NCBI GenBank assembly: GCA_943354045.1
Contig: CALRBF010000001.1
Span: 259,860 to 323,859 of the forward strand
Length of the DNA: 64,000 nucleotides
Origin: Parcubacteria group bacterium
GTDB lineage: Bacteria; Patescibacteriota; Minisyncoccia; SW-4-49-11
Reading direction: 5' to 3'
Shown: piece by piece, positions 3,850-63,028 of the stretch
Layout of the letters: each line of letters opens with the position of its first letter
How positions within the stretch are numbered: the stretch's first letter is position 1
The notes under the pieces: model-generated
Told to the model about the DNA's origin: nothing
The model's database searches: none
What the model saw: the letters and a program-made list of their open reading frames with translations, nothing else
Position numbers and translations under genes: made by a program

Positions 3850-3862
3850 ATATTGTTATTAT

Positions 3863-5175: not shown

Positions 5176-5202
5176 GTTTTTGATTATTATATATTTTTAT
5201 TA

Positions 5203-5320
5203 TAGCATATTTTGGGTAAAAATATGGACAGTTTTATTGTCCTCCTTTACCTGCCTACCGCAGGTAGGCAGGGAGGAGCTTTAAGTCCCTCTTATACTTT
5301 TTTAGGAGAGGGAAAAGAAA
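5203..5320. repeat. Mosaic palindromic repeat (m1 + m2 modules), 3' flank of the RhuM cassette
   Basis: 'agcatattttgggtaaaaatatggacagttttattgtcctcctttacctgcctaccgcaggtaggcagggaggagctttaagtccctc...ttaggagaggg'. Confidence 0.7.
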
Positions 5321-5370: not shown

Positions 5371-5778
5371 TTAAAGTAAAAGGACAGTAGCACGCCCATT
5401 TTCTATTATATGAGGAATTGCCACAAATCCTGGCACTACAACATTTTGTGGCAAAACACTCTTATTATTAAGACGATTATCCACTTGACCAGCGGGTAAT
5501 CTTGCCCTCACCCAACAAGACCTCCTAACTCTTGGGGATGATTGACATAAATATGAGAGCCTTTCTATGGGAACATTTCTAAACTCAAATGTCAAGAGTT
5601 TACTTGATGACACAACATCCCTAGACATTAGTGTAGCTGTGAATCTATCGGTTGGAAATATTTTAGGAGGATTACTTACTCCAGAACATCCAGAGACTCC
5701 TAGAAGGAGAATAAGCCCAAGAATGGAAGGTAGACGAAATCGGAATCTAGACATGGAAAGAACTCCAGTGATGGTCAA
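5371..5778 (-). CDS. Hypothetical lipoprotein
   Basis: Signal peptide plus lipobox 'LLLGVSGCSG'; bracketed by repeat copies; the real start is probably the internal Met. Confidence 0.4.
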   Translation of the reverse strand: MTITGVLSMSRFRFRLPSILGLILLLGVSGCSGVSNPPKIFPTDRFTATLMSRDVVSSSKLLTFEFRNVPIERLSYLCQSSPRVRRSCWVRARLPAGQVDNRLNNKSVLPQNVVVPGFVAIPHIIENGRATVLLL

Positions 5779-5825
5779 TAACCTTATATCATATTTTAGA
5801 ATTTTTGTCTATATTTTAGATTTCT

Positions 5826-5965
5826 GACGACTGAAAAGTCGCCCCTACGAGAGGAAATGTCGGCGAGGTCGCTGACTCTACGAAAAATGGAGGGATAAAC
5901 CCCCTCCCAAACTAAAATATGGGAGGGACTTAAAGCCTCCGCTACGAAAACTCCACACCACCCTT
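5826..5965. repeat. Mosaic palindromic repeat (m3 hairpin 'cgactgaaaagtcgcccctacga' + m5 'ggagggataaaccccctcc...gggagggacttaaagcctcc')
   Basis: Homologous to 50155-50225 and other copies. Confidence 0.7.
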
Positions 5966-5981
5966 ACCGATACTCCCATGC

Positions 5982-6010
5982 TTGAAAATAAGCTGGTTTT
6001 ATGGTATAAT
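5982..6010 (+). promoter_or_regulatory. Sigma70-type promoter of yebC-ruvC
   Basis: TTGAAA (5982-5987), 17-nt spacer, extended -10 'tggTATAAT' (6005-6010), 28 nt upstream of the yebC ATG. Confidence 0.6.
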
Positions 6011-6038
6011 TGTAATCAATAAGATAATAATATTCAAT

Positions 6039-8672: not shown

Positions 8673-8696
8673 GAGAGTTATTTTTTTACTTTTTTA

Positions 8697-10079
8697 TTAT
8701 ACCATACTTTGTATGAGTTTTATGTCATTTGGATTACTTCCTGCCTCATAGAATACAAGCTGCCTCTCCTTTATAGTATTTGATTGAATTAATGCGTCCA
8801 CATAATTCCAAGCAGCTTCAATTTCATCAGCCCGAATAAATAATGATTGATCTTGTTCAATAATATCTTGTATAAGCCGTGTATATGCCCCTTGACTTCG
8901 CTGCCCAAACGATTCTTCATAGGTGAAATTAAGTTTTACGGGCTGTATACACATTCCTTTTCCGGGAAATTTTGCATTTACCGTATAATATACCTCTTCA
9001 TTTGGCTGTATACTAATAACGAGCTCATTTTGCTGAGGATTGCACCCCTCATCAATATGACTAAAATAGTTAAAACTTTGCTTAAATTTTATTCTAATTT
9101 CAGCTTTAGTCTCTGATAATCGTTTCCCTGTTGATATATAAATAGGAGTATTTTCCCAGCGCAAATTATCTATATAGGCAGTTAATGCTATATATGTCTC
9201 TGTCTTGGACTCTGTAGGGACACCAGTCTCTTCAAGATAACTCTTTTTATCCCCTGAGCTGATATATTGCCCTAAGATTATATCTTTTGACTGAATTGGT
9301 CTTAGGGAATTAAGAATTTTATGCTTTTCATCACGAATATATTCTGCTTCCATAGCGACAGGAGCTTCCATGGTAATCAAAGCTAAGGTTTGCAAAATAT
9401 GATTCTGTAGAATATCTTTGATAATACCGGTATTATCAAAATACTCAGCCCTCTCATTAATACCCCGCTCTTCCCACACATTAATAGAGATTGACTCTAC
9501 ATAATGATTATTGAGTAATGGCTCAAACATAGTATTACCAAATCTCAAAGCTAAAATATTTTGTATTGTCTCCTTCCCAAGATAATGATCTATTCGATAA
9601 ATTTCCTCTTCTCGAAAAGATTCTGCGAGTTGATTATTCAATGCTTTTGCAGATATAATATCCGAGCCAAATGGTTTTTCAAATACAAGAGTATATTCTA
9701 TATCTTTATATTGTTGTTTGATATCGGATAAGGTAGTAATAATATTCCCAAAGGCTTGTGGTGGTATTGCCATATACCAAATAATTCTATCCCCTTTTTG
9801 TATGTCATAATCCCGAATAAAATTCTGAATTGTGAGTATAGTATCAAAGTCTAATTGTATATAATGTAAATTATCAATAAAATCTAATTTCCAATCATGT
9901 ATACCAAGAGAATCTCTCACTAATTGCTGATATTCTTCTTGTGTATAAGGCTTTCTGCCAGCTCCAATAAATTGGGTTTCCCCGATATATTGGCCATAAG
10001 AAAACATTTCAGCTAAAGCTGGGTATAATTTGGTGCGAGCTAAATCTCCCGTAGCACCAGTAATAATAAAATATGTCAT
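8697..10079 (-). CDS. zwf: Glucose-6-phosphate 1-dehydrogenase
   Basis: 'GATGDLA', 'RIDHYLGKE', 'EKPFG' motifs; 460 aa. Confidence 0.88.
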   Translation of the reverse strand: MTYFIITGATGDLARTKLYPALAEMFSYGQYIGETQFIGAGRKPYTQEEYQQLVRDSLGIHDWKLDFIDNLHYIQLDFDTILTIQNFIRDYDIQKGDRIIWYMAIPPQAFGNIITTLSDIKQQYKDIEYTLVFEKPFGSDIISAKALNNQLAESFREEEIYRIDHYLGKETIQNILALRFGNTMFEPLLNNHYVESISINVWEERGINERAEYFDNTGIIKDILQNHILQTLALITMEAPVAMEAEYIRDEKHKILNSLRPIQSKDIILGQYISSGDKKSYLEETGVPTESKTETYIALTAYIDNLRWENTPIYISTGKRLSETKAEIRIKFKQSFNYFSHIDEGCNPQQNELVISIQPNEEVYYTVNAKFPGKGMCIQPVKLNFTYEESFGQRSQGAYTRLIQDIIEQDQSLFIRADEIEAAWNYVDALIQSNTIKERQLVFYEAGSNPNDIKLIQSMV

Positions 10080-27452: not shown

Positions 27453-27490
27453 TATATATCCCCTAAGCTAACCCTATTGTAAACAAATTG

Positions 27491-27680
27491 TGTAGGGGCA
27501 ATATTGTAGCTGCTAGTACTATTATTGTCCTCCCTTAGGGGAGCTTTAAGTCCCTCCTATATTTATTTAGGAGGTGGGTGGGTGTTAGGCCGGAGGAGGA
27601 TAGATTTTAAGCTTGTATTTTATCCTCCCCAAAGTACTACATAATACAGGCGACTATAAGTTCGCCCCTACGAAGTGAAG
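27491..27680. repeat. Mosaic palindromic repeat (m1 fragment + m2 + m3)
   Basis: 'attattgtcctccc', 'ggagctttaagtccctcctatatttatttaggagg', 'ggcgactataagttcgcccctacgaag'. Confidence 0.7.
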
Positions 27681-27711
27681 AATACATACATATGAGAAAT
27701 TTTCTTATATC

Positions 27712-27740
27712 AAAAAAAGAGGATAATATCCTCTTTTTTG
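27712..27740. terminator. Bidirectional rho-independent terminator ending the r-protein operon
   Basis: 'aaaaaaagaggat aat atcctctttttt' perfect hairpin flanked by A and T runs. Confidence 0.7.
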
Positions 27741-27746
27741 AATGCT

Positions 27747-35963: not shown

Positions 35964-36125
35964 TAGGGGAGCTAGAAAAATTGTCCTCCTTTGCCTGCCT
36001 GCGGTAGGCAGGGAGGAGCTTTCAGTCCCTCCTAAATAAATATAGGAGGAGGTGGCACAGAGTGCCGGAGGTGGATTTTTTCTCTGGTTGGTGTAGCCAG
36101 GCGACTTGGAGGTCGCCCCTACGAT
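35964..36125. repeat. Mosaic palindromic repeat (m1 + m2 + m3)
   Basis: 'ttgtcctcctttgcctgcctgcggtaggcagggaggagctttcagtccctcctaaataaatataggagg...ggcgacttggaggtcgcccctacga'. Confidence 0.75.
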
Positions 36126-46519: not shown

Positions 46520-46745
46520 TTCTTCGTAGGGGCGACCTTTCAGTCGCCTGTGCTTTATAAAGATCATTTATTGCAGGAGACAAGAAAATACTGTCCTCCT
46601 TTGCCTGCCTGCGGTAGGCAGGCAGGCAAAGGAGGTGGATTGGGTTTCAGATTACATTTTATCCACCCTCCCCCTACGGGTACTCCCTCCAAAGGGAGAC
46701 AAAAACACAACTTCACGCAAACTCACACATGGCTCCGACTTTCGA
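46520..46745. repeat. Mosaic palindromic repeat (m3 + m1 long palindrome + m4)
   Basis: 'cgtaggggcgacctttcagtcgcc', 'ctgtcctcctttgcctgcctgcggtaggcaggcaggcaaaggagg', 'ttatccaccctccccctacgggtactccctccaaagggagac'. Confidence 0.75.
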
Positions 46746-50154: not shown

Positions 50155-50225
50155 AAACAGAGGGGTAAACCCCCTCCTAAACAAAGTATAAGAGGGGCTT
50201 AAAGCCTCTACTACGAAATCACACT
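50155..50225. repeat. Mosaic repeat (m5 type)
   Basis: 'gaggggtaaaccccctcctaaac...gaggggcttaaagcctctactacgaaa', homologous to 5885-5950. Confidence 0.65.
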
Positions 50226-50258: not shown

Positions 50259-52068
50259 ATCTATTAGATCTCTTTCGCTCATTGGCATCTAATACTCTTT
50301 TGCGAATTCTGAGACTCATTGGAGTTACCTCGAGGAGTTCATCATCAGCTAAATATTCAATACTAGCTTCTAGAGACATATCTTTAGGAGGAGCAATAAA
50401 TACCCCATCATCAGATCCAGATGCTCGCATATTGGTAAGCTTTTTTGCCTTTACCGGATTAATTTCTACATCTTGCTCCCGATTAGATTCTCCAAGCACC
50501 ATACCAGGATATACTTCTGTTCCATCAGTTACAAAGAATACCCCTCGATCTGAAGCTCCATCGAGAGCATATTTGGTGATTTTCCCGAGCTCCAGAGAGA
50601 CAATAGATCCAGTTAAACGCCCTTTACCACTGGATGCTCGAGGTCCATATTCAAGAAAAGAACTATTCATAATTACCGTTCCCTTAGACAGGGTAAGAAG
50701 AATACTTCTAAGTCCAATCAAATTCTGTGTGGTAATCTTATATTCAATATGAGACTCATTATGATCATTGATTTCCATATTCACAAGCTCACCCTGTCGC
50801 TTATTGACGGCTTCAATGATTTTACCGCTATATTCTTCTGGTACATCTAAACTTAATAGCTCATAAGGCTCTTCGGTAGCTCCATTATTGTCTCGAAGGA
50901 TTACCTGCGGTCTCCCGACAGAGAATTCATATCCCTCACGCCGCATAGTCTCAATCAATACCGCTAAATGAAGCTCACCTCGCCCTGCTACCAAAAATTT
51001 ATCCGGACTATCGGTATCTGCAATATTTAAGCTAATATTAGTCTCTTGCTCCTTATATAATCTATCTCGAATCATACGAGAAGTAGAATATTTTCCTTCT
51101 TTGCCTGAGAAAGGACTATCATTAATCGCAAACATCATCTGAAGAGTTGGGCTTTCCACTTCAATAGGAGCTATTTGTACCGGATTTTGAGAGTCAGCAA
51201 TAGTATCTCCAATTTCAATACCTCCTATTCCTGCAATTACAGCAATATCTCCCGCAATCAACTCATCAGTATCAATAAGTTCCATACCATTATATCGAAG
51301 TAGACTGGTAATAGTGTTTTTGGTCTGATTACCTGCTTTATCTATACGCACTACTGACATACCTTTTACAATTTTCCCAGCATCAATACGGCCTACAGCC
51401 ATAGTCCCTTTGAATTTATCAAATTGAAGATTCAAGGTAAGCATTCTAAATGAATCTACAATAGGAGATGTTGGAGCTGGAATTTCATTCACAATAACCT
51501 CGAATAATTCGGTCAAATCCTTACCTGTCTGATCAGTTTCAAGGGATGCAGAGCCATTGATAGCAGAAGCATATACAATAGGGAAATCTAATTGTTTATC
51601 ATTAGCATTAAGAGTTACGAATAAATCAAAAGTCTTATCTACCACAGAGTCTGGATTAGCATCAGGGCGGTCAATTTTATTAATTACCACCACTACCCGA
51701 AGCCCCAAAGCTAAAGCTTTTTTGAGCACAAATTTGGTTTGTGGCATAGGTCCCTCTTTAGAATCCACCAAAAGTAAGGCTCCATCAGCCATTTTGAGCA
51801 CTCGCTCTACTTCTCCACCAAAATCAGCATGGCCAGGAGTATCAATAAGATTAATAGTATAATCCTTATAGCTAACTGAGGCGTTCTTGGCTCTAATAGT
51901 AATACCTTTTTCTCGCTCCAAATCCATAGAATCCATAACACGCTCCTGCACAGCCTGATTTTCACGAAAAATCTGAGTCTGATGCAAAATAGCATCCATC
52001 AAAGTGGTTTTACCATGATCAACATGAGCAATAATAGCAAGATTACGGATATGTGAATTCATAAACAA
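50257..52068 (-). CDS. typA: Translational GTPase TypA/BipA
   Basis: 'NLAIIAHVDHGKTTL' G1, 'DTPGHADF' G3; 603 aa. Confidence 0.92.
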   Translation of the reverse strand: MFMNSHIRNLAIIAHVDHGKTTLMDAILHQTQIFRENQAVQERVMDSMDLEREKGITIRAKNASVSYKDYTINLIDTPGHADFGGEVERVLKMADGALLLVDSKEGPMPQTKFVLKKALALGLRVVVVINKIDRPDANPDSVVDKTFDLFVTLNANDKQLDFPIVYASAINGSASLETDQTGKDLTELFEVIVNEIPAPTSPIVDSFRMLTLNLQFDKFKGTMAVGRIDAGKIVKGMSVVRIDKAGNQTKNTITSLLRYNGMELIDTDELIAGDIAVIAGIGGIEIGDTIADSQNPVQIAPIEVESPTLQMMFAINDSPFSGKEGKYSTSRMIRDRLYKEQETNISLNIADTDSPDKFLVAGRGELHLAVLIETMRREGYEFSVGRPQVILRDNNGATEEPYELLSLDVPEEYSGKIIEAVNKRQGELVNMEINDHNESHIEYKITTQNLIGLRSILLTLSKGTVIMNSSFLEYGPRASSGKGRLTGSIVSLELGKITKYALDGASDRGVFFVTDGTEVYPGMVLGESNREQDVEINPVKAKKLTNMRASGSDDGVFIAPPKDMSLEASIEYLADDELLEVTPMSLRIRKRVLDANERKRSNR

Positions 52069-52271
52069 TACAAAGATAAGTAATATATGGGTTCTTTTTG
52101 TTTATTCTACCTAATATCTGATAAAAATGCAAATCTATAACAATATATTATTAGTTTTTATATAAATGTTATCTCTTGACATTTATGATAGTTGAGTGTA
52201 TATTATAAATCTGCTTAAGCAATACAATTCAATATCACATATCAAAAGGAGCGCTCAGCTCCTTTTGTCGT

Positions 52272-52306
52272 AGAATAACTGTTCCATGTGGAACAGTTAT
52301 TCTACC
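52272..52306. promoter_or_regulatory. Perfect 16+16-bp palindrome in the typA divergent intergenic region
   Basis: 'tagaataactgttcca tg tggaacagttattcta', preceded by a second hairpin 'aaaaggagc gctca gctcctttt' (52243-52268). Confidence 0.4.
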
Positions 52307-52319
52307 CACCTCAGGCGAA

Positions 52320-52600
52320 GAGGTTGTGGGCTGTTCTAAAAATTCCCCTCTCCACCTACGGTCGATAAATTGAGGGCTTTAAGTCCCTCCTATTATTTCT
52401 TGTAAAGAGATATTAGGAGGGGGCGACCTTTCAGTCGAGTGTATTATAAATCTGTCTCCCTTTGGAGGGAGAACCCACAGGGGGAGGGTGGATTATACGC
52501 AAAATCTAGCTATAACACCTATATTAGAATAGGCTACCAATTATACTTTATCCACCCCCGCCTTTTAGGCACTCCCTTCGACAAAGGTGTCAAAATATTC
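52320..52600. repeat. Composite mosaic palindromic repeat
   Basis: 'gagggctttaagtccctcctattatttc...gagatattaggagggggcgacctttcagtcg', 'tctccctttggagggaga', 'gggtggat...tatccaccc'. Confidence 0.7.
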
Positions 52601-52632
52601 TATACTAAAGCTAAATTTATAATCTCAAATCT

Positions 52633-53559: not shown

Positions 53560-54189
53560 CTATCCCAAATGAGCATGGTCATTCCAAGTAACTATTTTCC
53601 AATCCTTTTTTATTTCGTCAAATTGCATCCATACAATACCCGTATTACTCATAATAAAGTTATCTGTGATAATTTTTGCCTCTTTTGGTGTAACATTAGA
53701 ATCAAATAGTCTATACCAGATAAGACAATGCAGAAAATTTTTATGGGTTACAATAATAATATTGTCTTCCTTCCTAGACTCGATAAATTCAAATGCTTTT
53801 TGGGCTCTTTGTTTTAAATCCTCAAAATTTTCTTCATCAGAATGTCTATAACTTAATATTTCCCAATTATCTGCAATTGCTTTATCTATAGCTTTTAATT
53901 CTTCCAGCTCTTTACTCTTTTCTTCTTGAATAGATGGTCTTTTTCTTTCTCTAAATAATTCATTCTTCTCAATAGGTAAATTCACTGTCTTAGATATATA
54001 TTCAGCTGTTTCATATGCCCTCGTATAAGGACTTGATATCAGTAAATCAACTGTAATATTACTTAACCGCCTAGACGTTGTCTGCGCTTGTTCATGACCT
54101 AATTCAGACAATGGGATACTCGCCGATTGATATACCCTCAATGTATTTCCCTCTGATTGCCCATGGCGTACAAAATATATATTTTTCAT
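53560..54189 (-). CDS. Histidine phosphatase family (phosphoglycerate mutase-like) protein
   Basis: 'MKNIYFVRHGQSEGN' RHG motif. The ORF-track N-terminal extension to 54240 reads through the tRNA-Ala 3'-end duplicate and is rejected. Confidence 0.7.
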   Translation of the reverse strand: MKNIYFVRHGQSEGNTLRVYQSASIPLSELGHEQAQTTSRRLSNITVDLLISSPYTRAYETAEYISKTVNLPIEKNELFRERKRPSIQEEKSKELEELKAIDKAIADNWEILSYRHSDEENFEDLKQRAQKAFEFIESRKEDNIIIVTHKNFLHCLIWYRLFDSNVTPKEAKIITDNFIMSNTGIVWMQFDEIKKDWKIVTWNDHAHLG

Positions 54190-54190
54190 A

Positions 54191-54320
54191 TGTGGACCTG
54201 ACTGGGATACAAACCAGACTGGTAGTCTTGGGAAACCCACGGTTTCCCAACCTTCCTAGACAGGAAACTCCCGTTTCCCGACCCCTTCCCAACTGGCTCG
54301 ATCATTTGTTTAGTTAATAC
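54191..54320 (-). mobile_element. Miniature insert 3' of tRNA-Ala: partial tRNA 3'-end duplicate (18-nt exact direct repeat) plus a conserved two-hairpin GC-rich module
   Basis: 'tgtggacctgactgggat' at 54191-54208 and 54321-54338; module 'ggaaacccacggtttccc...ggaaactcccgtttcccgaccccttcccaactggctcgatc' shared with 57187-57300. Confidence 0.5.
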
Positions 54321-54322
54321 TG

Positions 54323-54395
54323 TGGACCTGACTGGGATCGAACCAGCCACCTCCTCGGTGCAAGCGAGGCGCTCTACCAGATGAGCTACAGGCCC
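54323..54395 (-). tRNA. tRNA-Ala (anticodon TGC)
   Basis: Reverse complement 'gggcctgtagctcatctggtagagcgcctcg cttgcac cgagg aggtg gctggttcgatcccagtcaggtcca'. Confidence 0.85.
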
Positions 54396-54451
54396 TAATT
54401 ACAGATTAGAGTATATCAGATTGTGATTATCTATGCAAGAGTTAAAGATAT

Positions 54452-55360
54452 CTAATTTAGATTTGTATGGGTAAAATCTAATAACTGGAAGTTATTTTCT
54501 TGAATATATTCTGGTGTCACTGTATACAATACTGGTGCAAAATTTGTCGTAACATATTCTGTAGACTGTATTTTGCCATTTACTCTACACTCCTTCAAAA
54601 TTTCATTATATCGAAAATATATATCGCCCCTTTTTACAAAACAATGATTTTTTTCAATAATATGGTATTTTTCTGGAATTCTTTTTGTGGTTAGAACTTG
54701 CCCCTTAAGATGTGTGTCTGTAAGCCATATTTTTAATTGAAGAGGTTGATTTGATATATTTTCTAACTTTAGATCAATAAAATTATATAATATCGTAGCT
54801 CCACCACCAAAAGGTAATGTTCTCCCAGAATCAGGAAAAACGTCCATGGAATGATGATATCTCTCTATAGTTTGCATTGATGTGTGTAAAAATATCCAGT
54901 ATAAAAAATTAGAGAGCTGACATAGTCCTCCCCCTAAACCTGGGATAACCGCCCCGTTTGCAAGTAACATTCCATCTACATATCCTTTGTCATATGTGGG
55001 TTTCCCAATCAATTTCCATAAAGAAAATATTTTTCCCGGCTCAATAACTACTCCATCTAAATGTTTAATTGCCTGTTTAAGATTAGTTATCTTTTGTTCT
55101 TGTAACTCCAAGTCACTATCACCAAGCCTCCTCCTAAGTACCGATTGATGCCGCGCAACTACCATTGGCAAAAAATCTTCCGTCTGATAACATCGTATTT
55201 TAGAATCTAAAATATTAGATATCGTACGAGATGTATGTCTTACAAATAAAATTGGCTTTTGAATAAAAGGATATTGTTTTGATAATGCAGTTCTCTTTGG
55301 CGACTCATATTCTGTTAATAATTTTTGTACCTTACTCCACAAGTCTCCTGGCTCATCCAT
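54452..55360 (-). CDS. VanW-like protein
   Basis: 302 aa; 'GGGLCQLSNFLYW' resembles the VanW-domain G-G-G-x-C-Q motif. Confidence 0.5.
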   Translation of the reverse strand: MDEPGDLWSKVQKLLTEYESPKRTALSKQYPFIQKPILFVRHTSRTISNILDSKIRCYQTEDFLPMVVARHQSVLRRRLGDSDLELQEQKITNLKQAIKHLDGVVIEPGKIFSLWKLIGKPTYDKGYVDGMLLANGAVIPGLGGGLCQLSNFLYWIFLHTSMQTIERYHHSMDVFPDSGRTLPFGGGATILYNFIDLKLENISNQPLQLKIWLTDTHLKGQVLTTKRIPEKYHIIEKNHCFVKRGDIYFRYNEILKECRVNGKIQSTEYVTTNFAPVLYTVTPEYIQENNFQLLDFTHTNLN

Positions 55361-55495
55361 ATAATATAATATAATTTATATTATATTATATTATATTTTA
55401 TACTACATCACCAGTATACTTATCCACATTATTCGTGTTCGACAGTATCAGCCGTCCCTAAATAAAAGAGAGAAGTATAACTCCTCTCTTTATTT

Positions 55496-55572
55496 TGGCG
55501 GGGACGGCCGGGCTCGAACCGGTGACCTTCTGCGTGACAGGCAGACGCTCTAACCAACTGAGCTACGCCCCC
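55496..55572 (-). tRNA. tRNA-Asp (anticodon GTC), CCA encoded
   Basis: Reverse complement 'gggggcgtagctcagttggttagagcg tctgc ctgtcac gcaga aggtc...ggttcgagcc...cgtccccgcca'. Confidence 0.85.
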
Positions 55573-55623
55573 ATAATTGTTGTAGTATATCAATGATCTT
55601 ATACTTCTGCAAGAGCAATACTA

Positions 55624-55698
55624 TGGGGTGGCCAACGGGAATCGAACCCGTAATGTCGGAACCACAACCCGAAGTTTTACCGTTAAACTATGGCCACC
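55624..55698 (-). tRNA. tRNA-His (anticodon GTG) with G-1, CCA encoded
   Basis: Reverse complement 'g gtggcca tagtttaacggtaaaac tcggg ttgtggt tccga...gggttcgattcccgt tggccac c cca'. Confidence 0.8.
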
Positions 55699-55772
55699 AC
55701 ATAATATTTCTCCTTTTGACAAGAAGTCTAGGATATTCTATCAAAAATAAGCTTGATTTGCAACTATACCCC

Positions 55773-57104
55773 CTACTTATTTTGTAATATTACTTTTAAT
55801 ACCTCATCTTTGTCAGAAGTTAGGGTAAATAATTTTTCATCTTCCAGCTTAATAGTACCATATTCATGAACAAATACTTTGTCGATATATTCTACTAATG
55901 GCCACCAAAACTCAGTGTCAAAGAGTATAAGAGGAGTTTTATCTACTTTATGTGTTTGTACTAAGGTTAATACCTCAAATAATTGATGCAGGGTTCCAAG
56001 CCCTCCCGGACAAAACAAATATTGATTAGTAGGTCCTGTTAATATAAATTGCCGAGTAAATGGAAATCTAAAATGAATAGAATCACTTACATAATTATTC
56101 ATTGTTTTTCCCGCCTGATGCAAAAGAGTTGCAAAAGCTGGTTTTCCGGCTTCTGCAGATGCTTTATTAGCTGCTTCTGCTATACCAAAACCACCTCCTG
56201 TAAGAATACTAAAGTCATATTTGATTAATTCCTGTGCAATAACATAGGTATCCTGATAATAGTGACTATCTTGTGAAACTTTATTACTTCCGAGTATTGT
56301 CACATTTTGGGATAAAGACTCAAGAAACTCAAGCCCCTCTACTAATTCCGCCATTATACGAAATATTCGCCAATTCACACTAGCGATAGCAGTACTATTG
56401 GATGAAGTAGCTAATATATTAGGATAATCCTCTGTCTTACTAATAATTTCAAAGGCTTCTTCGGCAGTCTCTACTATATGTATCATTTCTAAATCCTCAG
56501 CTTTTATGGCCCCAAGTACAGAATGACAAGTGTTTCGTAAAAATTGTATCAGAGGGTTCCAGAAGTCCTGTCCTACCAAAATAACGGGAACTCTTTGCAT
56601 AAAGCCAAGTGCCATTTCATTTAATACTTGAAATAATTCATCTACAGTTCCATATCCCCCAGGAAAATAAACAAAAGCCTGAGAAGGACTTGTAAGCATA
56701 ACTTTACGAGTAAAGAAATAGCTAAAATTAACCGAATCAGTAACATAAGAATTGATACGCTGTTCCATAGGAAGTTCAATCCCGAGCCCAATAGAATCGC
56801 CTTTTACTTGAAAAGCTCCACGATTGGCAGCCTCCATAATACCAGGTCCTCCTCCTGTAATCACCGTATAATTATTGAGTCCTAATAATTCCCCTAATTT
56901 ACGTGCTTTTATATAATATTGATCATCTTCATGAGTACGGGCTGAGCCAAATATCGTAACTTCATTTTTGTATTTTGCCATCAAATCATAACCCTCTACA
57001 AATTCTGCCATTACCTTGAATAATTTCCAAGAATCTGTTTGGGCGAGCTTATAGGGAGCTCCTATGGTGTCTTGAAGAGTTTTGAGTTTTTCGGTATATG
57101 CCAT
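55773..57104 (-). CDS. Tandem LOG-family (TIGR00730, cytokinin-riboside-5'-monophosphate phosphoribohydrolase-like) protein
   Basis: Domain 1 'GGGPGIME' + 'PGGYGTVDE'; domain 2 'GGGFGIAE' + 'PGGLGTLHQ' (E to Q). Confidence 0.75.
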   Translation of the reverse strand: MAYTEKLKTLQDTIGAPYKLAQTDSWKLFKVMAEFVEGYDLMAKYKNEVTIFGSARTHEDDQYYIKARKLGELLGLNNYTVITGGGPGIMEAANRGAFQVKGDSIGLGIELPMEQRINSYVTDSVNFSYFFTRKVMLTSPSQAFVYFPGGYGTVDELFQVLNEMALGFMQRVPVILVGQDFWNPLIQFLRNTCHSVLGAIKAEDLEMIHIVETAEEAFEIISKTEDYPNILATSSNSTAIASVNWRIFRIMAELVEGLEFLESLSQNVTILGSNKVSQDSHYYQDTYVIAQELIKYDFSILTGGGFGIAEAANKASAEAGKPAFATLLHQAGKTMNNYVSDSIHFRFPFTRQFILTGPTNQYLFCPGGLGTLHQLFEVLTLVQTHKVDKTPLILFDTEFWWPLVEYIDKVFVHEYGTIKLEDEKLFTLTSDKDEVLKVILQNK

Positions 57105-57137
57105 AATTTTGTTTTGAATAATTGAGGGGGGGGGTAT

Positions 57138-57324
57138 TCGATTTCTGGTTTTTTACTCGTTTACGGGGGTGTCTCCGATTGGGATCTCAGTCGCTATAGC
57201 TCCTTGGAAACCCACGGTTTCCAACACTCGGAGTAAACTCCTCGCTGCCTTCCTTCACGGGGAACTCCCGTTCCCCGACCCCTTCCCAGTTCGATCCTTT
57301 AATTATTTACTTTTAATTAATATT
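57138..57324 (-). mobile_element. Miniature insert 3' of tRNA-Arg: 49-nt exact direct repeat of the tRNA 3' end plus trailer, enclosing the conserved two-hairpin GC-rich module
   Basis: 'tcgatttctggttttttactcgtttacgggggtgtctccgattgggatc' at 57138-57186 and 57325-57373; module 'ttggaaacccacggtttccaac...ggggaactcccgttccccgaccccttcccagttcgatcc'. Confidence 0.55.
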
Positions 57325-57356
57325 TCGATTTCTGGTTTTTTACTCGTTTACGGGGG

Positions 57357-57430
57357 TGTCTCCGATTGGGATCGAACCAATAACCTACAGCTTAGAAGGC
57401 TGTTGCTCTATCCAATTGAGCTACAGAGAC
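57357..57430 (-). tRNA. tRNA-Arg (anticodon TCT)
   Basis: Reverse complement 'gtctctgtagctcaattggatagagcaacagc cttctaa gctgt aggttattggttcgatcccaatcggagaca'. Confidence 0.85.
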
Positions 57431-57750
57431 GATATACAAAAGCATTATAGCAAATATGATTGGTTTTTACAAATAAAAAAAGCCCCGACAAATGCGGGAG
57501 CTGATAGTGGTGTGGGGAGACTCATCAAGGAAAAAATTTGCCCCCCCTTATAAGGCCATAGTGCAATAATCAGAGTTATTATTAAGATTATAATGGAAAA
57601 AAACCATTTGTAGGAGCTATAGCAACAACTAAAACTGCTCCAGCCACAATGGTAATGCCTCGACGGAACATAGCACAAAGCTGAGAAAAGTTCATGGGAA
57701 AATTACAGTAACCACACAAATAGTACTATATTTTTCAAAAATATCAATTT

Positions 57751-59754
57751 TTACCATTCCGAATCATAATCAGTATAAGTGAGCGACAATTGCTCCAAAA
57801 GATGATCTGGTATCTCAGTAATAAATCGTGAAGAAGGATTGGATTGAATTTGCCCAAATATACGCCTCAGCTGAGTATATGTCATATACAGCTTATCCTT
57901 GGCTCTAGTAATACCAACATAACACAGTCGACGCTCTTCCTCTAATTCTTTATGCGAGATGAGACTTCGGGAGTGGGGGAGTATACCTTCTTCCATACCA
58001 ATCATAAATACTACCGGAAATTCCAACCCCTTAGCTGCATGATAAGTCATCAAAGTAACAGCTTGAGTAGCCTGCATTCCATCAATATCGGATAATAATG
58101 CAGTTTCTTGCAAGAATTCATATAAAGCCTCCTCCACAGGGAGATTATCAAATTTCTGCGTTACCGTGAATAATTCTTCAATATATTCCATTCTAGCTTC
58201 ATTTTCTTTGCTTTTTTCCCAATGGCTAGTATATTGGGTGATTTTCAAGATATCTGCCACCAGCTGAGATAATGTATATTTATCTCTCTCAAAAGCCCCC
58301 TTAAGCTCAAAAATTTGCTCGCAGAAGACCATTATTCCTCTTCGGGCTCCTCCAGTTATCTTCAGAGAATATTTATCCGTATGGGTCAATAATTCGAGCA
58401 AATCGATATTTTGCTCATTTTCATTGCTCAATGAATAGGCTTCAAGGATTTTATCAATACTAGTCTTACCAACTGATCGCTTTGGCACATTGATAATACG
58501 CCGAAAAGAAGCCGTATCATTGGTATTATATAAGAATTTGAGATAGGCCAAAAGATCTTTGATTTCGGCTCTCTCATAGAATTTGGTACCCCCTACAATT
58601 TGATAGGGAATTCTCATCTGCAAAAAGGCTTCTTCCAAAGCTCGAGATTGCGCATTGGTGCGATACAGACAAGCAAATCCTGACAAAGTATATTTACCTC
58701 TAGCCACCAAGTCTTTGATGGTGCGAGCCACGAATAAACTTTCCTGATACTCATTTTCCGCCTCTACCAAATGAATTAATTCTCCTGATTCTTTATCTGT
58801 CCACAAATTTTTATCCTTTTTTTGGGTATTTTTATCGATAACCTGATTGGCAGCATCCAGAATAATTTGGGTAGAGCGATAATTCTGCTCTAATAGCACA
58901 ACTTTAGTATCTTTATAATCTTTTTCAAAATTAAGAATATTCTTAAAATCCGCTCCTCTCCAAGAATAAATTGCCTGAAAGTCGTCCCCAACCACACAAA
59001 GATTCTTATACTTATGCGCCAATAATTTTACCAATTCATATTGAGCCTGATTGGTATCCTGATACTCATCAATCATAATATAACGGTATCTATCCTGATA
59101 ACGCGCAAGTACATCTGCAAATTCCTTGAATAATATTACCGTATTCATAATAATATCATCAAAATCCATGGCATTATTCTTCCGTAATTGCTTCTGATAT
59201 TCTTGATATAATTCAATAGCCAATTCCTCTAGGGGAGTAGTAGGATTATAGTCAGCAAATTGACTGGCAGTAATGAGATTATTCTTAGCCTTAGAGATAA
59301 TATATTGTATGGAAGCTGGTTTCACCTGATCTTTGGGGATATCTCGTTTTTTGAGCAAATCCTTGATAATATTCTGACTATCAGTAGTATCATAAATCAA
59401 AAATGACTTATCATACCCCAAAGCCTCAGCCTCTCGATGTAATATATTCAGACAAACGGAGTGAAAAGTCCCCACCATAGGCATAGCGGGCACATTGTCC
59501 CCAAAAGAAGTCTCAAGCAAATGTTTGATTCGCTCCTTCATCTCTTTTGCCGCCTTATTAGTAAAGGTTACCGCCAATATACTATAAGGGGAAATTCCCT
59601 GAGCAATCATATAGGCAATACGCTTGGTAAGCGTAGAGGTCTTCCCTGAACCCGCTCCAGCTAATACCAAAACAGGACCTTCTATGGTCTGGGCTGCTTC
59701 CAATTGTTTGTCATTAAGTCCTTGTAGAATAGGATGAATTTTGTCTTTTGGCAT
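57751..59754 (-). CDS. uvrD: ATP-dependent DNA helicase UvrD/PcrA
   Basis: 'LAGAGSGKTSTLTKRIAYMI' Walker A; helicase motifs 'DEYQDTN', 'VGDDFQAIYSWRGA', 'TYHAAKGLEFPVVF'. Confidence 0.9.
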   Translation of the reverse strand: MPKDKIHPILQGLNDKQLEAAQTIEGPVLVLAGAGSGKTSTLTKRIAYMIAQGISPYSILAVTFTNKAAKEMKERIKHLLETSFGDNVPAMPMVGTFHSVCLNILHREAEALGYDKSFLIYDTTDSQNIIKDLLKKRDIPKDQVKPASIQYIISKAKNNLITASQFADYNPTTPLEELAIELYQEYQKQLRKNNAMDFDDIIMNTVILFKEFADVLARYQDRYRYIMIDEYQDTNQAQYELVKLLAHKYKNLCVVGDDFQAIYSWRGADFKNILNFEKDYKDTKVVLLEQNYRSTQIILDAANQVIDKNTQKKDKNLWTDKESGELIHLVEAENEYQESLFVARTIKDLVARGKYTLSGFACLYRTNAQSRALEEAFLQMRIPYQIVGGTKFYERAEIKDLLAYLKFLYNTNDTASFRRIINVPKRSVGKTSIDKILEAYSLSNENEQNIDLLELLTHTDKYSLKITGGARRGIMVFCEQIFELKGAFERDKYTLSQLVADILKITQYTSHWEKSKENEARMEYIEELFTVTQKFDNLPVEEALYEFLQETALLSDIDGMQATQAVTLMTYHAAKGLEFPVVFMIGMEEGILPHSRSLISHKELEEERRLCYVGITRAKDKLYMTYTQLRRIFGQIQSNPSSRFITEIPDHLLEQLSLTYTDYDSEW

Positions 59755-59924
59755 TATATATCAATATTATATTTTTTCTTTTGTACGGATAATTGTGGAG
59801 GCTCCAAGCAGACTCGCACTGCTGTAGAGGGTTTTGCAGACCCTTGCCTAACTTCTCGGCCATGGAGCCAATTACGGCTTTTAGTATAGCATAGATTCAG
59901 TTTTTAGGGAAATGATAGGAGAAA

Positions 59925-59958
59925 GAAAAAGCCCACCGTCCGAAGAGGTGAGCTGGGG
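59925..59958 (-). terminator. Terminator of small acidic gene 1 (shared terminator type)
   Basis: Minus-strand hairpin from 'cccagctcacctcttcggacggtgggc' followed by T5; same 'gcccaccgtccgaaga' core as 62074-62100. Confidence 0.5.
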
Positions 59959-59975
59959 GAGCTGGAAGTGGAGCG

Positions 59976-60272
59976 CTAGACTTCTCGAGGCATATCCTTG
60001 AGGATACGCTCGCGGGAAGATAGAGCTCCTGGTCTCAAAGATTCCATACAGTCAAGAACTGCTTGACTCAACCCCACCAGAAAATTTATCCCTTCGGGAC
60101 TCAACTCCTCAGAGAGAGGCATCTCGGGGTCCATCGGGTCCATCGAATCAATGAGGTCTATGGCATCAGTAGCCTCTGGAATCACAAAATTTCGATCAAC
60201 AAAGGCTTCGAGCGCTCGCTCGGCAAACCCTTCATTAAGTGCAGAGTCTAACTCTTCTTGGGAAATGGACAT
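59976..60272 (-). CDS. Small acidic protein (paralogue family member 1), GC-rich
   Basis: 98 aa, D/E/P-rich; consensus promoter 17 nt upstream; paralogous context to 62132..62281. Confidence 0.45.
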   Translation of the reverse strand: MSISQEELDSALNEGFAERALEAFVDRNFVIPEATDAIDLIDSMDPMDPEMPLSEELSPEGINFLVGLSQAVLDCMESLRPGALSSRERILKDMPREV

Positions 60273-60295
60273 AAAACTTATGCATCAACGCAAAC

Positions 60296-60324
60296 ACCAT
60301 ACCACATTTTTCTAATTTTGTCAA
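60296..60324 (-). promoter_or_regulatory. Strong sigma70-type promoter of small acidic gene 1
   Basis: Minus strand TTGACA (60324-60319), 17 nt, tgg-TATGGT (60301-60296); homologous to 62304-62332. Confidence 0.55.
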
Positions 60325-60371
60325 TATGTTTTGTGTTTTTGCTATAATGCTTATCTCTATTTTATAAACAT

Positions 60372-60515
60372 AATAGCTTATTTACTTATTTTTATATAAT
60401 TTTATATTTTACTATTATGTTATGTTTTATTATTATACATTTTAAATTTCGTAGTGCTTTAAGTCCCTCCTAAATAAATATAGGAGGGGGCGACCTTTCA
60501 GTCGCCCGAAACCTA
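60372..60515. repeat. AT-rich about 70-nt block duplicated at 62381-62450, plus a GC-rich repeat (m2 + m3)
   Basis: 'aatagcttatttacttatttttatataattttatatttt...' matches 62381+; 'gctttaagtccctcctaaataaatataggagggggcgacctttcagtcgccc'. Confidence 0.65.
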
Positions 60516-60597
60516 ACCCCAAAACTTGACAAAAAAACACTACTATTATAAAATATATTTACATTTGGCGTTAGCCACGTCCCTCGTTTACGAGGGC

Positions 60598-60996
60598 TCA
60601 TTGATAAAGATTTATAAATCCTTCTTTTACTTTAGCAAAATCTATTTCATTCAAAGACCCCATTTTGTTATGCCGTCTCCTATAATCAATTGTTCTGACC
60701 TGCTGTAAACAAGCTGTTATTCTCTTACCTTGATATTCATAGGCCACATACCAAGTACCTGTTTTATTTTTGGTAGTTGTAGGAATAACCAAATATGTCC
60801 ATTTACTTAATCTTTTTAATATAATAACTGGTCTAGAAAACTTATCTCCCTTACCGCTGACTTCTGTTCCAATATTCTCTCCTAATTGACACCACCAAAT
60901 ATCTCGTTCTTTGACAAATGGAGCTTTGTGATTACTTTTATCTAACTTAGATTTTAATACTAACCATTCCTTAAATCTTTTGATAAATTTTTGCAT
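60598..60996 (-). CDS. MazF/PemK-family endoribonuclease toxin-like protein; no antitoxin ORF evident
   Basis: 'ERDIWWCQLGENIGTEVSGKGDKFSRPVIILKR...YLVIPTTTK' matches the MazF/PemK core; surrounded by repeats. Confidence 0.55.
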   Translation of the reverse strand: MQKFIKRFKEWLVLKSKLDKSNHKAPFVKERDIWWCQLGENIGTEVSGKGDKFSRPVIILKRLSKWTYLVIPTTTKNKTGTWYVAYEYQGKRITACLQQVRTIDYRRRHNKMGSLNEIDFAKVKEGFINLYQ

Positions 60997-61054
60997 ATAG
61001 TATTGATATAATTTGTATAGATTATATCTTAACTAAAGCTATGTGTATAGGAGG

Positions 61055-61440
61055 AGGACGGGGTGGAATGTTCTGTATTCGTAGGGCTTTAAGTCCCTCC
61101 TATATTTATTTAGGAGGGGGCGACCTCTCAATCGCCCGTGGTATTATTGTCTCCCTTTTGGGGTAGTTTATTATTGTCCTCCTTTGGAGGAGGTGGATAG
61201 TTATTAAAGTTGTATTCTAGTTTTTGAATAAAATTTAGTAATATACTTTATCCACCCTCCCCCTACGGGTACTCCCTCCAAAGGGAGACAAAAATACAGT
61301 CCACACCCGTCACTTCGTGACACCCTCGCCAGCGAGGCCTGCCTGCGGTAGGCAGGGACAGTTTTTGTCCTCCCTTGGGGGACATTAAAACCCTCCACCC
61401 CGTCAGGCAAGCCTGCCACCCCCTCCCAAACTCTATGCTA
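61055..61440. repeat. Largest composite of mosaic palindromic repeat modules (m2, m3, variable-loop 'ggtggata...tatccacc' hairpin, m4, inverted m1, 'ccaccccgtcagg')
   Basis: Modules seen directly and shared with 46520-46745, 52320-52600 and 62455-62650. Confidence 0.75.
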
Positions 61441-61470
61441 TAATATGGATATATATACTAAATATTTTCT

Positions 61471-62070
61471 ATGCCCAAGCTCAAATCATCAACCTATACT
61501 TTCTCCCCCCTACAGGAGGGGACTTTGCCTTTTGATGCCAATAGCAAGCGCAATGTAACAGATCAATTAGCTTGGGCTAAAAGAGAGGATATTCTAGAGA
61601 CTATTAACCCACATAAAATCCCTATATCGCTCTTACTCGTGAATATTGACCGGGATAATAATATTGGTAATATAATCAGATCAGCTAATACTTTCGGGGT
61701 GCAGGAGGTGCTAATTTATGGCAGGAAAAAATTTGACCGTAGAACTAGTGTTGGAGCTGAATTTTTTATGCAATTTTGGCATATTCGCTTTGTTGAGGAG
61801 TTAGAGACTCTACAACAAGAATTTGATATTATACTCGGATTAGAACAAACCTCTGATTCAGTAGAATTACATAGCTATCAATGGCCTCAAAATGCTAAAA
61901 TACTAATTGCTATTGGGCATGAGGGTACTGGGCTTCCCCAAGAAATACTGGATATTTGTGATACTACCCTTGAGATTGAGCAATACGGCACCACCAGATC
62001 CCTGAATGTATCAGTTGCTACAGGGATTGTACTATATGATTATCGGGTGAAAAGAGAGTTAGTAAAGTAA
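61471..62070 (+). CDS. TrmH/SpoU-family RNA 2'-O-methyltransferase
   Basis: SPOUT motifs 'LLLVNIDRDNNIGNIIRSANTFG', 'IAIGHEGTGL', 'LNVSVATGIVLY'. Confidence 0.75.
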   Translation: MPKLKSSTYTFSPLQEGTLPFDANSKRNVTDQLAWAKREDILETINPHKIPISLLLVNIDRDNNIGNIIRSANTFGVQEVLIYGRKKFDRRTSVGAEFFMQFWHIRFVEELETLQQEFDIILGLEQTSDSVELHSYQWPQNAKILIAIGHEGTGLPQEILDICDTTLEIEQYGTTRSLNVSVATGIVLYDYRVKRELVK

Positions 62071-62100
62071 AAAGCCCACCGTCCGAAGACGGGGGCTGGG
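62069..62100 (-). terminator. Terminator of small acidic gene 2
   Basis: Minus strand 'cccagcccccgtcttcggacggtgggc' followed by T5. Confidence 0.55.
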
Positions 62101-62131
62101 AGTGGCTGAGAATCCACTCAAGATGAAGACG

Positions 62132-62281
62132 TTAGCTCTCCTGAGTGGGTTCAACCTCATGGGCTTCGGGGTCTACAAAGAACCCTTTAGCAGCTTCATT
62201 AGCCACTGGCCTGAAGAGATTCTCCAGAACCTCAAAGCCAAGCTGCACCAGCTGCTGGTCGGTGGTGGGGGTGGAGGACAT
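62132..62281 (-). CDS. Small acidic protein (paralogue family member 2), 49 aa from an internal Met; GC-rich
   Basis: 'MSSTPTTDQQLVQLGFEVLENLFRPVANEAAKGFFVDPEAHEVEPTQES'. The segment is open in three frames, so coding status is uncertain; the ORF-track N-terminal extension is AT-rich promoter sequence. Confidence 0.35.
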   Translation of the reverse strand: MSSTPTTDQQLVQLGFEVLENLFRPVANEAAKGFFVDPEAHEVEPTQES

Positions 62282-62303
62282 GTCAGACCTGAAAGACAAG
62301 CTA

Positions 62304-62332
62304 TATATACCACATTTCCTTAATTTTATCAA
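62304..62332 (-). promoter_or_regulatory. Strong sigma70-type promoter of small acidic gene 2
   Basis: Minus strand TTGATA (62332-62327), 17 nt, tgg-TATATA (62309-62304). Confidence 0.55.
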
Positions 62333-62454
62333 TACATCTTGTGATTTAATCATAATATCCACCCTTACTTTATCAATTTAATAGCTTATTTACTTGTTTT
62401 TATATAATATTATATTTTGATATTACTTTATGTTTCATCCTGAATAATTTTGAC

Positions 62455-62655
62455 TTTCGTATGGCTTTTGTCCTAAAATTCCCCTCTTGAGGGGTGTCAT
62501 ATTTACCTGACGGGGTGGAAAAGAAAATATTCATAAATAATACAGAAACACTCCACCCCGTCTTCCTGCTATGTAAACATGGCAGGAATCCACCCCTCAA
62601 CGAGGGGAATTTAACTCAATCCACCTGCTATCGATAAAAAGGGAGGACAAAATAA
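62455..62655. repeat. MITE-like nested palindromic element with about 30-nt imperfect terminal inverted repeats
   Basis: Left end 'ttttgtcctaaaattcccctcttgaggggtg'; right end is the reverse complement 'cacccctcaacgaggggaattt...gggaggacaaaataa'; inner inverted repeat 'tgacggggtgga...tccaccccgtc'. Confidence 0.6.
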
Positions 62656-62718
62656 TATCCGCCTCCCTACACACTAATAGCCAGTGTAAAAACTGGCTTT
62701 TTTATTATATATAAAATT

Positions 62719-62756
62719 AAAAAAAGCCAGTCGTCTTGTAGGCGGCTGGTGGTTTT
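62719..62756 (-). terminator. Terminator of the infB-rbfA transcription unit (bidirectional-looking)
   Basis: 'ccagtcgtcttgtaggcggctgg' flanked by an A-run and a T-run; a second hairpin 'gccagt gtaaaaa actggc tttttt' at 62684-62709. Confidence 0.5.
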
Positions 62757-62773
62757 TGAGTGAGTATGAACAC

Positions 62774-63028
62774 TCAGAGAGTCGGCGGAATAGGGATTTC
62801 CCATTGAGCCATAAGGCTTTCATGGCGGACAAGAGCATATCTCGATTCATTACTATTTTCTTTTTTATGTTTTTCTCTGAAAATTTTTAACCAATAAAGA
62901 AATTTTTGAGTAACAGGATGATTAACATCCATAAACCCTCCAAAGAACAAATTATAAAAAATACTATACCACAAATTCTGACTTTTATCAAAAAAGTTAA
63001 GTTTTTTACAAGTTGAGGTAAAATACAA
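62774..63028 (-). CDS. Hypothetical protein downstream of rbfA
   Basis: 84-aa ORF; its C-terminal codons overlap the hairpin region, so the real gene may be shorter. Confidence 0.3.
   Translation of the reverse strand: MYFTSTCKKLNFFDKSQNLWYSIFYNLFFGGFMDVNHPVTQKFLYWLKIFREKHKKENSNESRYALVRHESLMAQWEIPIPPTL

Follow-up and report, generated by a model that had tools for sequence, protein, structure and literature searches.

In the present study we analyzed a 64-kb stretch of gene-dense bacterial DNA (GC ~35%; the whole stretch is called the window below) and found that its positions 61055-61440 are a cluster of ~8 small GC-rich stem-loop modules that resembles a bacterial interspersed mosaic element (BIME). 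An earlier description of the stretch, made from the letters alone (the sequence-only reading), had flagged this cluster as one of 12 listed loci of a dispersed palindromic repeat family. The family has three layers: repetitive extragenic palindromes (REPs) tagged with GTAG, inverted pairs of longer arms (X and Y), and small hairpins (m1 and m2) that are nested within the other units. We consider it probable, at roughly 75%, that the 61055-61440 cluster belongs to a lineage-specific REP family of freshwater Parcubacteria and represents non-autonomous selfish DNA, whose mechanism of spread we infer from the arrangement of its copies.

The family was clearly recognizable against the rest of the window. 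GC-rich modules were present at all 12 listed loci, where the GC content was 0.41-0.54; the window as a whole is at ~0.35, and intergenic DNA free of modules lies at 0.11-0.32. The m2 sequence GCTTTAAGTCCCTCC (up to 2 mismatches) occurred in 8 copies versus 0.11 expected, and CGTAGGGGCGAC in 4 copies versus 0.62 expected, while the m1 core was found in 4 exact copies and one variant. Self-BLAST of the window and BLAST against relatives placed all family segments between genes, and of 28 perfect hairpins that contain GC and reach 7 bp or more, 25 fell within the 13.8% of the window (8,851 nt, greedy open reading frame map) that is intergenic. The folding of 61055-61440 was also far more stable than that of shuffled sequences, with z = -7.7 for DNA of the + strand and z = -8.3 for RNA of the - strand. 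As proposed earlier, some open reading frame calls over the modules are spurious, for example 61204-61419 (-). The claim that the family occupies most intergenic regions was too strong, since modules were located in 12 of the 28 regions of at least 100 nt and 12 of the 42 regions of at least 40 nt. The density was likewise overstated: family sequence amounts to ~1.9 kb, or ~3% of the whole window and 22% of what is intergenic in it. Modules were also found outside the window, in related metagenome-assembled genomes (MAGs) and in freshwater metagenome contigs, and they correspond to no rRNA, tRNA or Rfam family. At the Rfam gathering score only 7 tRNA genes were detected in the window, and scans of 54100-57500 and 60200-62800 at E <= 1 gave chance-level matches only. 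Arrays of the CRISPR or TIGR type were rejected, as the spacing is irregular and no tandem array was present at any module locus.

The housekeeping genes in the window include polA, mutS, pnp, typA, and pcrA. Window positions 53924-59915 are syntenic with contig JBEAQD010000040 of a MAG labeled 'Candidatus Parcubacteria bacterium', at 76-82% nucleotide identity, and further stretches are syntenic with freshwater metagenome contigs at ~80% identity. On the basis of this synteny the window would be placed in the Patescibacteria, or Candidate Phyla Radiation (CPR), which fits the earlier guess of a reduced genome. The related data pooled in this study comprised 6 loci of two related MAGs and 79 metagenome loci, with ~0.77 Mb of related fragments (L numbers below). 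In addition, the Logan assembly of run ERR3997377 contained contig L001, 100% identical to the window across 2.6 kb, and contig L243, which codes for an identical toxin protein in the same gene order. These contigs stop at ~61103 and ~61403, showing that an independent short-read assembly breaks inside the cluster. The short dispersed repeats of chloroplasts or other organelles were also considered and ruled out, because the window carries bacterial housekeeping genes at high density.

The GTAG-tagged REPs form the first layer, and at least three stem types were found behind a common (T)TCGTAG head. R1, which is the m3 of the sequence-only reading, reads (T)TTCGTAG-GGGCGAC-CTTTCA-GTCGCCY and consists of an unpaired head, a 7-bp GC stem and a 6-nt loop. 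R2 reads CGTAG-a-GTCGGCG-ACCC-CGCCGAC and R3 reads CGTAG-y-GGAGGG-TTTAY-CCCTCC, and two longer GTAG-headed units start with GCTTTAAGTCC (m2) or GCTTTTGTCC ('c-type'). In the window, 15 of the 29 CGTAG sites are intergenic; most are followed by a hairpin, and 13 by a recognizable family module. R1 is represented there by 4 canonical copies and 3 partial or composite ones, and by 37 distinct copies in the pooled related data, in which GTAG hardly varies and pairing was found in 91% of stem cells. Among 33 distinct R1 sequences, G4, A6, and G7 are at least 90% conserved.

The second layer consists of two 40-nt arms, X (GTCCTCCTTTGGAGGAGGTGGCACGGAGTGCCGGAGGTGGAT) and Y (GTCTCCCTTTGGAGGGAGTACCCGTAGGGGGAGGGTGGAT), which are related in sequence. 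They form inverted pairs (X..Y', Y..X', and Y..Y') around an AT-rich centre of variable length (20-65 nt among 92 copies). The Y arm holds its own CGTAG head followed by its stem, and Y' was carried by 79 freshwater metagenome loci, several of them syntenic with the window at ~80% identity. The second hairpin of arm X has been swapped for other perfect palindromes, namely GGCAC/GTGCC, GCCCC/GGGGC, and GGCC/GGCC.

The third layer is nested in the first two, and m1 and m2 are clean insertions in other modules, m1 in hairpin loops and m2 in R1 after GTAGGG. The 20-nt m1 is present or absent exactly at the arm X loop CCTCCTTT^GGAGG in copies that are otherwise near-identical, and in L126, L162, and L174 it occupies the arm Y' loop CCCTCC^AAAGGGAG in the same relative orientation. 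At 46595-46635 it is fused with the host hairpin into an 18-bp perfect palindrome. In the window the 33-nt hairpin m2 lies between GTAGGG and GGCGAC of R1, which is uninterrupted at the orthologous site of L150 and L158; its loops are flipped among copies with the same stem. The module boundaries drawn earlier were partly arbitrary: m4 corresponds to one of the two arms (Y') in an inverted pair, m2 is a hairpin lying within the m3 REP, m5 combines m2 with a third REP type on the opposite strand, and the 'ggtggat/atccacc stem' is the inner end of two arms. The comparison with REP/BIME mosaics holds up in view of the GTAG-REP anatomy of m3 and the occurrence of singletons, tandem trimers (5826-5947), and mixed clusters. 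BIME-type clusters, which combine REP types with other motifs in variable order, were found at 61055-61440, 46521-46709, 5826-5965, and 35964-36125 (Table 1).

Table 1. Positions of repeat modules in the window; the cluster at 61055-61440 is given first, followed by the other loci.
Feature	Position	Strand	Remarks
c-type element tail (GGACGGGGTGGAATGTTCTGTATT)	61054-61077	+	GTAG-headed; head (CGTAGTGCTTT) at 60450-60460, beyond the toxin cassette
Composite of R1 (TTCGTAGGG...GGCGACCTCTCAATCGCCCG) and nested m2	61078-61138	+	Family D1; 89% identical to 60448-60508
m2 in the composite (CCCTCCTA-tatttatt-TAGGAGGG)	61086-61118		33 nt, after GTAGGG; clean 33-nt indel versus L150/L158
Truncated Y arm (GTCTCCCTTTTGGGGTAG)	61147-61166	+	From alignment with the full Y arm of L150/L158
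Short X arm (GTCCTCCTTTGGAGGAGGTGGAT)	61172-61198	+	Without the second hairpin; left arm of an inverted pair
AT-rich variable centre	61199-61249		51 nt, between the GGTGGAT and ATCCACC arm ends
Y arm (Y' on +: ATCCACCCTCCCCCTACGGGTACTCCCTCCAAAGGGAGAC; m4)	61250-61291	-	Family D17; 95% identical to 46653-46709
m6 double hairpin (GTCAC-ttc-GTGAC; CCTCGC-cag-CGAGG)	61292-61337	+	Matches L056 1388-1428 and L059
m1 hairpin (GCCTGCCTGCGGTAGGCAGG)	61337-61356	+	Family D7
Hairpin GTCCTCCC-tt-GGGGGAC, then C-rich module (CCTCCACCCCGTCAGGCAAGCCTGCCACCCCCTCCC)	61364-61430	+	Family D11
R1+m2 composite, second copy	60448-60508	+	Loop flipped (TAAATAAATAT versus TATATTTATTT); family D1
End of m2/R1 composite	1-35	+	Cut at the window edge; family D6
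X hairpin head, m1	3863-3930	+	
X hairpin head, m1 variant, m2	5203-5320	+	m1 variant with 10-bp stem
GTAG-REP trimer, head-to-tail	5826-5965	-	R1 5826-5851, R2 5859-5884, R3+m2 5902-5947; divergent promoter region
Cluster: X-type head, m2, arm pair, R1	27491-27680	+	R1 on -; convergent intergenic region
Cluster: X hairpin with m1, m2 (flipped loop), GGCAC hairpin, GGTGGAT, R1	35964-36125		R1 (36100-36124) on -, the others on +
Cluster: R1, X-type hairpin with m1, GGTGGAT-20 nt-ATCCACC, Y' arm	46521-46709	+	R1 46521-46548; X-type hairpin with m1 46595-46635
R3-like GTAG head with m2-type hairpin	50155-50225	-	Adjoins the terminator downstream of typA
Cluster: m2-like hairpin, R1-like unit, Y arm, centre, right arm	52320-52600	+	Y arm 52450-52493; 56-nt centre; right arm diverged
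c-type GTAG(T)-headed element (CGTATGGCTTTTGTCC...CCCCTC-tt-GAGGGG)	62455-62655	+	With related C-rich/G-rich GGGGTGGA modules

When orthologous sites were compared, modules were found to be gained, lost, and swapped among relatives ~20% diverged in coding DNA. In the convergent region 27453-27746 a ~190-nt module block of the window is absent in L173, and both sequences keep a bidirectional terminator composed of an A-run, a hairpin, and a T-run. The terminator hairpin downstream of typA is conserved with compensating changes among orthologous sites, while the module adjoining it differs: different GTAG modules occur in the window, L166, and L124, and none in L191. Three species, those of the window, L166, and L124, share an orthologous Y element upstream of typA, and the ~110 nt of modules upstream of this element are window-specific. 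The slot between tRNA-Ala and tRNA-Asp has a completely different gene content in the window than in L066, where module clusters form its borders. In the window this slot (54452-55360) holds a VanW-like gene, and in L066 (540-2230), which is from a related MAG, two unrelated small genes. It is a site for variable cassettes.

A PemK/MazF toxin gene at 60598-60996 (-) (PF02452, E = 1.5e-10) is bracketed by the two direct copies of the R1+m2 composite. The toxin cassette also splits a c-type element, which is unbroken at the orthologous positions of L150, L158, and L179 (CGTAGTGCTTTTGTCC...GGACGGGGTGGAATG), where the toxin gene is absent. This is the pattern expected if the cassette entered by crossover in a shared module. 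When the toxin cassette was sought in other contexts, only the same genome matched. The flagged cluster stops just ahead of the promoter-like TGCTATAAT of a gene for a SpoU-type methyltransferase (ATG 61471).

According to the reading that we favor, the modules are non-coding and would fold into hairpins as single strands. New copies would arise at further intergenic sites and in loops that are exposed, and the likeliest agent would be a single-strand nuclease of the HUH/Y1 type, similar to the REP-associated tyrosine transposases (RAYTs), that acts on the GTAG-tagged hairpin in trans. The palindromic arms would then be perfected and shuffled through template switching and gene conversion, and sequence-identical modules could serve as crossover points at which small accessory genes, for example the PemK cassette, come and go. 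A role in RNA such as 3'-end protection, if there is any, would be secondary. GTAG REPs are thought to be mobilized by RAYT Y1/HUH transposases, and the RAYT gene flanked by REPs (REPtron) can be absent (PMC3733652).

Several points weigh against this reading. No RAYT or other Y1 gene flanked by modules was found in the window or in the related fragments by tblastn and phmmer with three approximate Y1 query sequences or by a motif scan based on PMC6006769. The only matches were a single IS200 in L141 and a fragment in L145. The hairpins of the L141 element (CCCCGCCC-TTTTAA-GGGCGGGG; CCCCGCC-TTTTAA-GGCGGGG) are unrelated to the modules and single-copy in the pooled data. Two-sided covariation in the R1 stem did not exceed that of shuffles; the copies are too similar for this test to be informative, and the conservation of the hairpin could thus reflect recent common descent instead of selection. 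Moreover, the presence/absence differences could be explained by deletion or gene conversion as well, and the placement in the Patescibacteria is based on synteny and a MAG label. The L141 gene itself (3326-3727) codes for an IS200-type Y1 transposase, TnpA (PF01797, E = 1.4e-39).

Template switching combined with gene conversion is a serious rival for the mode of spread. If no transposase were involved, the palindromes would grow locally by template switching (quasi-palindrome correction) and spread by homologous recombination or gene conversion, which we regard as somewhat unlikely. The m1 copy at 46595-46635 that has absorbed its host loop, the flipped loops of m2, the palindrome replacements in arm X, and the junctions of the toxin cassette, which lie exactly in shared CGTAGNGCTTT heads, are all what such a process would leave, and it also agrees with the failure to find a RAYT. 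However, units of 20-33 nt are present at many unrelated sites with sharp boundaries and with a consistent target and orientation, which insertion explains more easily than local growth, and such a model leaves the conserved unpaired GTAG tag without a function. It is unlikely, to a somewhat greater degree, that the X/Y arm pairs are transposable elements of the miniature inverted-repeat type (MITEs) derived from a terminal-inverted-repeat (DDE) insertion sequence, with the GTAG REPs being separate and merely co-located. The arm pairs of the window do have an inverted-repeat architecture around an AT-rich centre, and relatives carry the X-20 nt-Y' core within a 230-420-bp element whose terminal inverted repeats measure 23-28 nt (GATGAGGTTATCGTCGACAAAAG...); 86 such ends were counted in the related loci, several per contig. 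Such terminal repeats are nevertheless wholly missing from the window (0 copies). No full-length element with a transposase between such ends and no autonomous partner were found in the related data, target-site duplications are lacking around the arm pairs, and a CGTAG head with its stem is inside the Y arm itself. Replication of an arm pair as a unit was seen only for the MITE-embedded version in relatives, and the pairs in the window are often of mixed type. Elements of this MITE-like kind were located at L181 1752-2009 and 6752-7006, L115 4334-4610, L006 675-931, and many other positions; their ends are GATGAGGTTATCGTCGACAAAAG and the reverse complement of GATGAGATGCATCGTAGACAAG, with X-20 nt-Y' at the centre.

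The modules might also be functional RNA elements held by selection, such as terminators, attenuators, 3'-end stabilizers, or decoys that sequester ribosome-binding sites, but this is improbable as their primary identity. Their predicted folds are very stable, GGAGG/CCTCC words are numerous, modules often adjoin terminators, the GTAG strand of R1 often shows G-T wobbles (G-U at the stem foot in 20 of 33 copies), and REPs elsewhere have been reported to act on mRNA (PMC3733652). Most modules, however, carry no T-run; in 59900-62800 a T-rich tail was found among family modules only at 61338-61356 and 62481-62494. Neither R1 (14 versus 11 copies) nor m2 (9 versus 5) showed a clear orientation bias to the flanking genes, and both occur in tandem, convergent, and divergent contexts roughly as available, which together with the missing T-runs argues against terminators as what the modules primarily are. 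An orientation bias was apparent for the X/Y arms, but it is confounded, as many metagenomes contributed orthologous copies. In addition, modules are found in divergent, promoter-only regions (5755-6038, 52063-52632, and 60997-61470), a separate canonical terminator is kept at orthologous sites while the modules vary, and no Rfam family was matched. Finally, the window probably comes from a metagenome assembly, and short-read contigs break inside the cluster, so chimeric joins, misassembled low-complexity sequence, or binning errors have to be considered. The recurrence of the same modules in independent assemblies (GTDB MAGs, Joint Genome Institute metagenomes, and Logan) and the conserved flanks at orthologous positions leave such an artefact with a negligible probability.

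The GTAG superfamily is defined by a small palindromic unit (20-40 bp) with an unpaired GTAG (GTRG) head, a stem of 6-13 bp and a short loop, and has been divided into 24 numbered families (Di Nocera et al., 2013, PMC3733652). The family described here is similar to the GTAG-tagged REPs of Enterobacteria and Pseudomonas in its ~27-nt unit with an unpaired GTAG, a 7-bp GC-rich stem and a short loop, as well as in being extragenic and multi-copy, with several stem types per genome and G-T pairs in the stems. Like REP/BIME sequences in general, it occurs as singletons, dimers, and mixed clusters, often by the 3' ends of genes. A further trait of BIMEs is that they bind IHF, DNA gyrase or DNA polymerase I. 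It differs from known GTAG REPs in its host, a ~35% GC putative member of the Parcubacteria, a phylum not covered in two broad surveys (PMC3733652 among these). Further differences are the AT-rich loops, the interleaved non-REP arms, the other hairpins nested within units, and the lack so far of a RAYT gene in the sequences searched. For REPINs, which are inverted REP doublets, mobility as non-autonomous DNA has been proposed (Bertels and Rainey, 2011, PMC3116915). The inverted arm pairs recall REPINs, but here the arms are 40 nt long with 2-3 small hairpins each, the two arm types often differ (X with Y'), and the spacer of 20-65 nt is AT-rich and variable. The REP/BIME/REPIN-like kind is thus well known, and what appears to be new is the Parcubacteria/CPR host; the record of hairpin-in-hairpin nesting is unusually clear. 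A literature search found no such repeats described in Parcubacteria or CPR, in line with the suggestion that the family is undescribed for this lineage; the m1 sequence was not found in that search either.

Recombining GC-rich palindromic modules with fast turnover in AT-rich intergenic DNA are also seen in pneumococcal BOX elements, the GC clusters of yeast mitochondria, and the short dispersed repeats of the Chlamydomonas chloroplast. These have no sequence kinship with the Parcubacteria family, lack the GTAG tag, and belong to unrelated hosts. Rickettsia palindromic elements (RPEs) are 100-150 bp long and are often inserted in-frame in protein-coding genes. The present family resembles them as palindromic repeats in the small AT-rich genome of what may be a host-dependent bacterium, but every copy is intergenic. 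Because no family copy was located inside a gene, the RPE-like behavior proposed for it does not apply.

Matches to m1 and R1 were also observed far outside the window lineage. The m1 20-mer GCCTGCCTGCGGTAGGCAGG turned up in at least 120 genome stretches that span many phyla, among them Bacteroidota, Acidobacteriota, Thermodesulfobacteriota, WOR-3, and several CPR groups. Several of these MAGs hold more than one copy, and the hairpin usually lies in the middle of their own palindromic repeats, for example gtcattgcgagg-[hairpin]-cgaagcaatctc. The other modules were absent from the m1-bearing loci of other phyla, and no RAYT was found near the cross-phylum m1 matches. The R1 head and stem (CGTAGGGGCGAC-N6-GTCGCC) occurred in 38 IMG/VR stretches, nearly all of 50-70% GC and mostly with the loop CGGCCG and a CCTAC tail, indicating that this stem type is widespread outside Parcubacteria. 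Convergent evolution toward simple GC hairpins, REP types of ancient origin, or horizontal spread may account for this recurrence. A more speculative idea, which we consider even less probable than selection for an RNA function, is that the 20-33-nt palindromes are minimal mobile units in a RAYT-less REP system, inserting into loops at a fixed site and orientation (CCTCC^AAAGG), and that the cores of m1 (GCCTGCCTGCGGTAGGCAGG) and R1 (CGTAGGGGCGAC..GTCGCC) may be common to unrelated phyla and viral contigs through the passage of such palindromes, or of enzymes moving them, from lineage to lineage, for example between episymbiotic CPR cells and their hosts.

Several other features were noted in the window. 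Near the flagged cluster, a 162-nt AT-rich segment is duplicated at 75% identity (60299-60460 versus 62307-62468; D2). Each duplicate has a promoter-like sequence upstream of a small unannotated open reading frame (59976-60272; 62132-62362; no Pfam match) and a GTAG-headed module at its end, and L150 and L158 carry the same segment upstream of an orf98 homologue. Upstream of typA, at 52243-52305, there are two adjacent perfect palindromes, CAAAAGGAGC-gctca-GCTCCTTTTG and GTAGAATAACTGTTCC-atgt-GGAACAGTTATTCTAC, whose cores AGCTCCTTTT and TGTTCCAYGTGGAACA are kept at the orthologous site of L166, L124, and L191. They are likely a terminator and an operator-like site outside the repeat family.

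Some tRNA genes are immediately followed on the 3' side by short GC-rich inserts, whose bounds are marked by a duplicated 3' end of the tRNA (57137-57373; 54190-54321 (-); L066 ~2140-2200). The 137-nt insert at tRNA-Arg(tct) lies between exact 50-nt direct repeats (57137-57186 = 57324-57373), and at tRNA-Ala the final ~18 nt of the tRNA recur ~110 nt downstream. The insert core GGGAAGGGGTCGGGRAACGGGAGTT...TTGGAAACCGTGGGTTTCCAA was 27-70 nt downstream of a same-strand tRNA (Arg, Ala, Asp, or Asn) in 8 of 16 pooled copies; some of the remaining copies are inside the MITE-like element of relatives, and there was no Rfam match. These inserts may represent a mini-element that targets tRNAs, or else what is left of an integrative element. 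In addition, an extended -10 box (TGATATAAT, TGCTATAAT or TGGTATAAT, gene strand) recurs upstream of genes (3850-3873, 5176-5214, and 8673-8711 (-)). It stops ~8 nt ahead of the ATG, and there is no Shine-Dalgarno sequence between them, which suggests that leaderless mRNAs are common in this genome.

The CPR/Patescibacteria are usually described as minimal and streamlined. With ~3% of the DNA and about one fifth of the intergenic space taken up by repeats, our results indicate that selfish palindromes persist in such a genome. The breaks of short-read assemblies at these clusters affect the completeness and binning of MAGs, and the modules can be used as lineage-specific markers for strain typing and population genomics. 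They also mark where small accessory genes such as a toxin come and go. Should complete genomes of this lineage prove to be without a RAYT, the family would be a test case for the spread of GTAG REPs without their usual enzyme.

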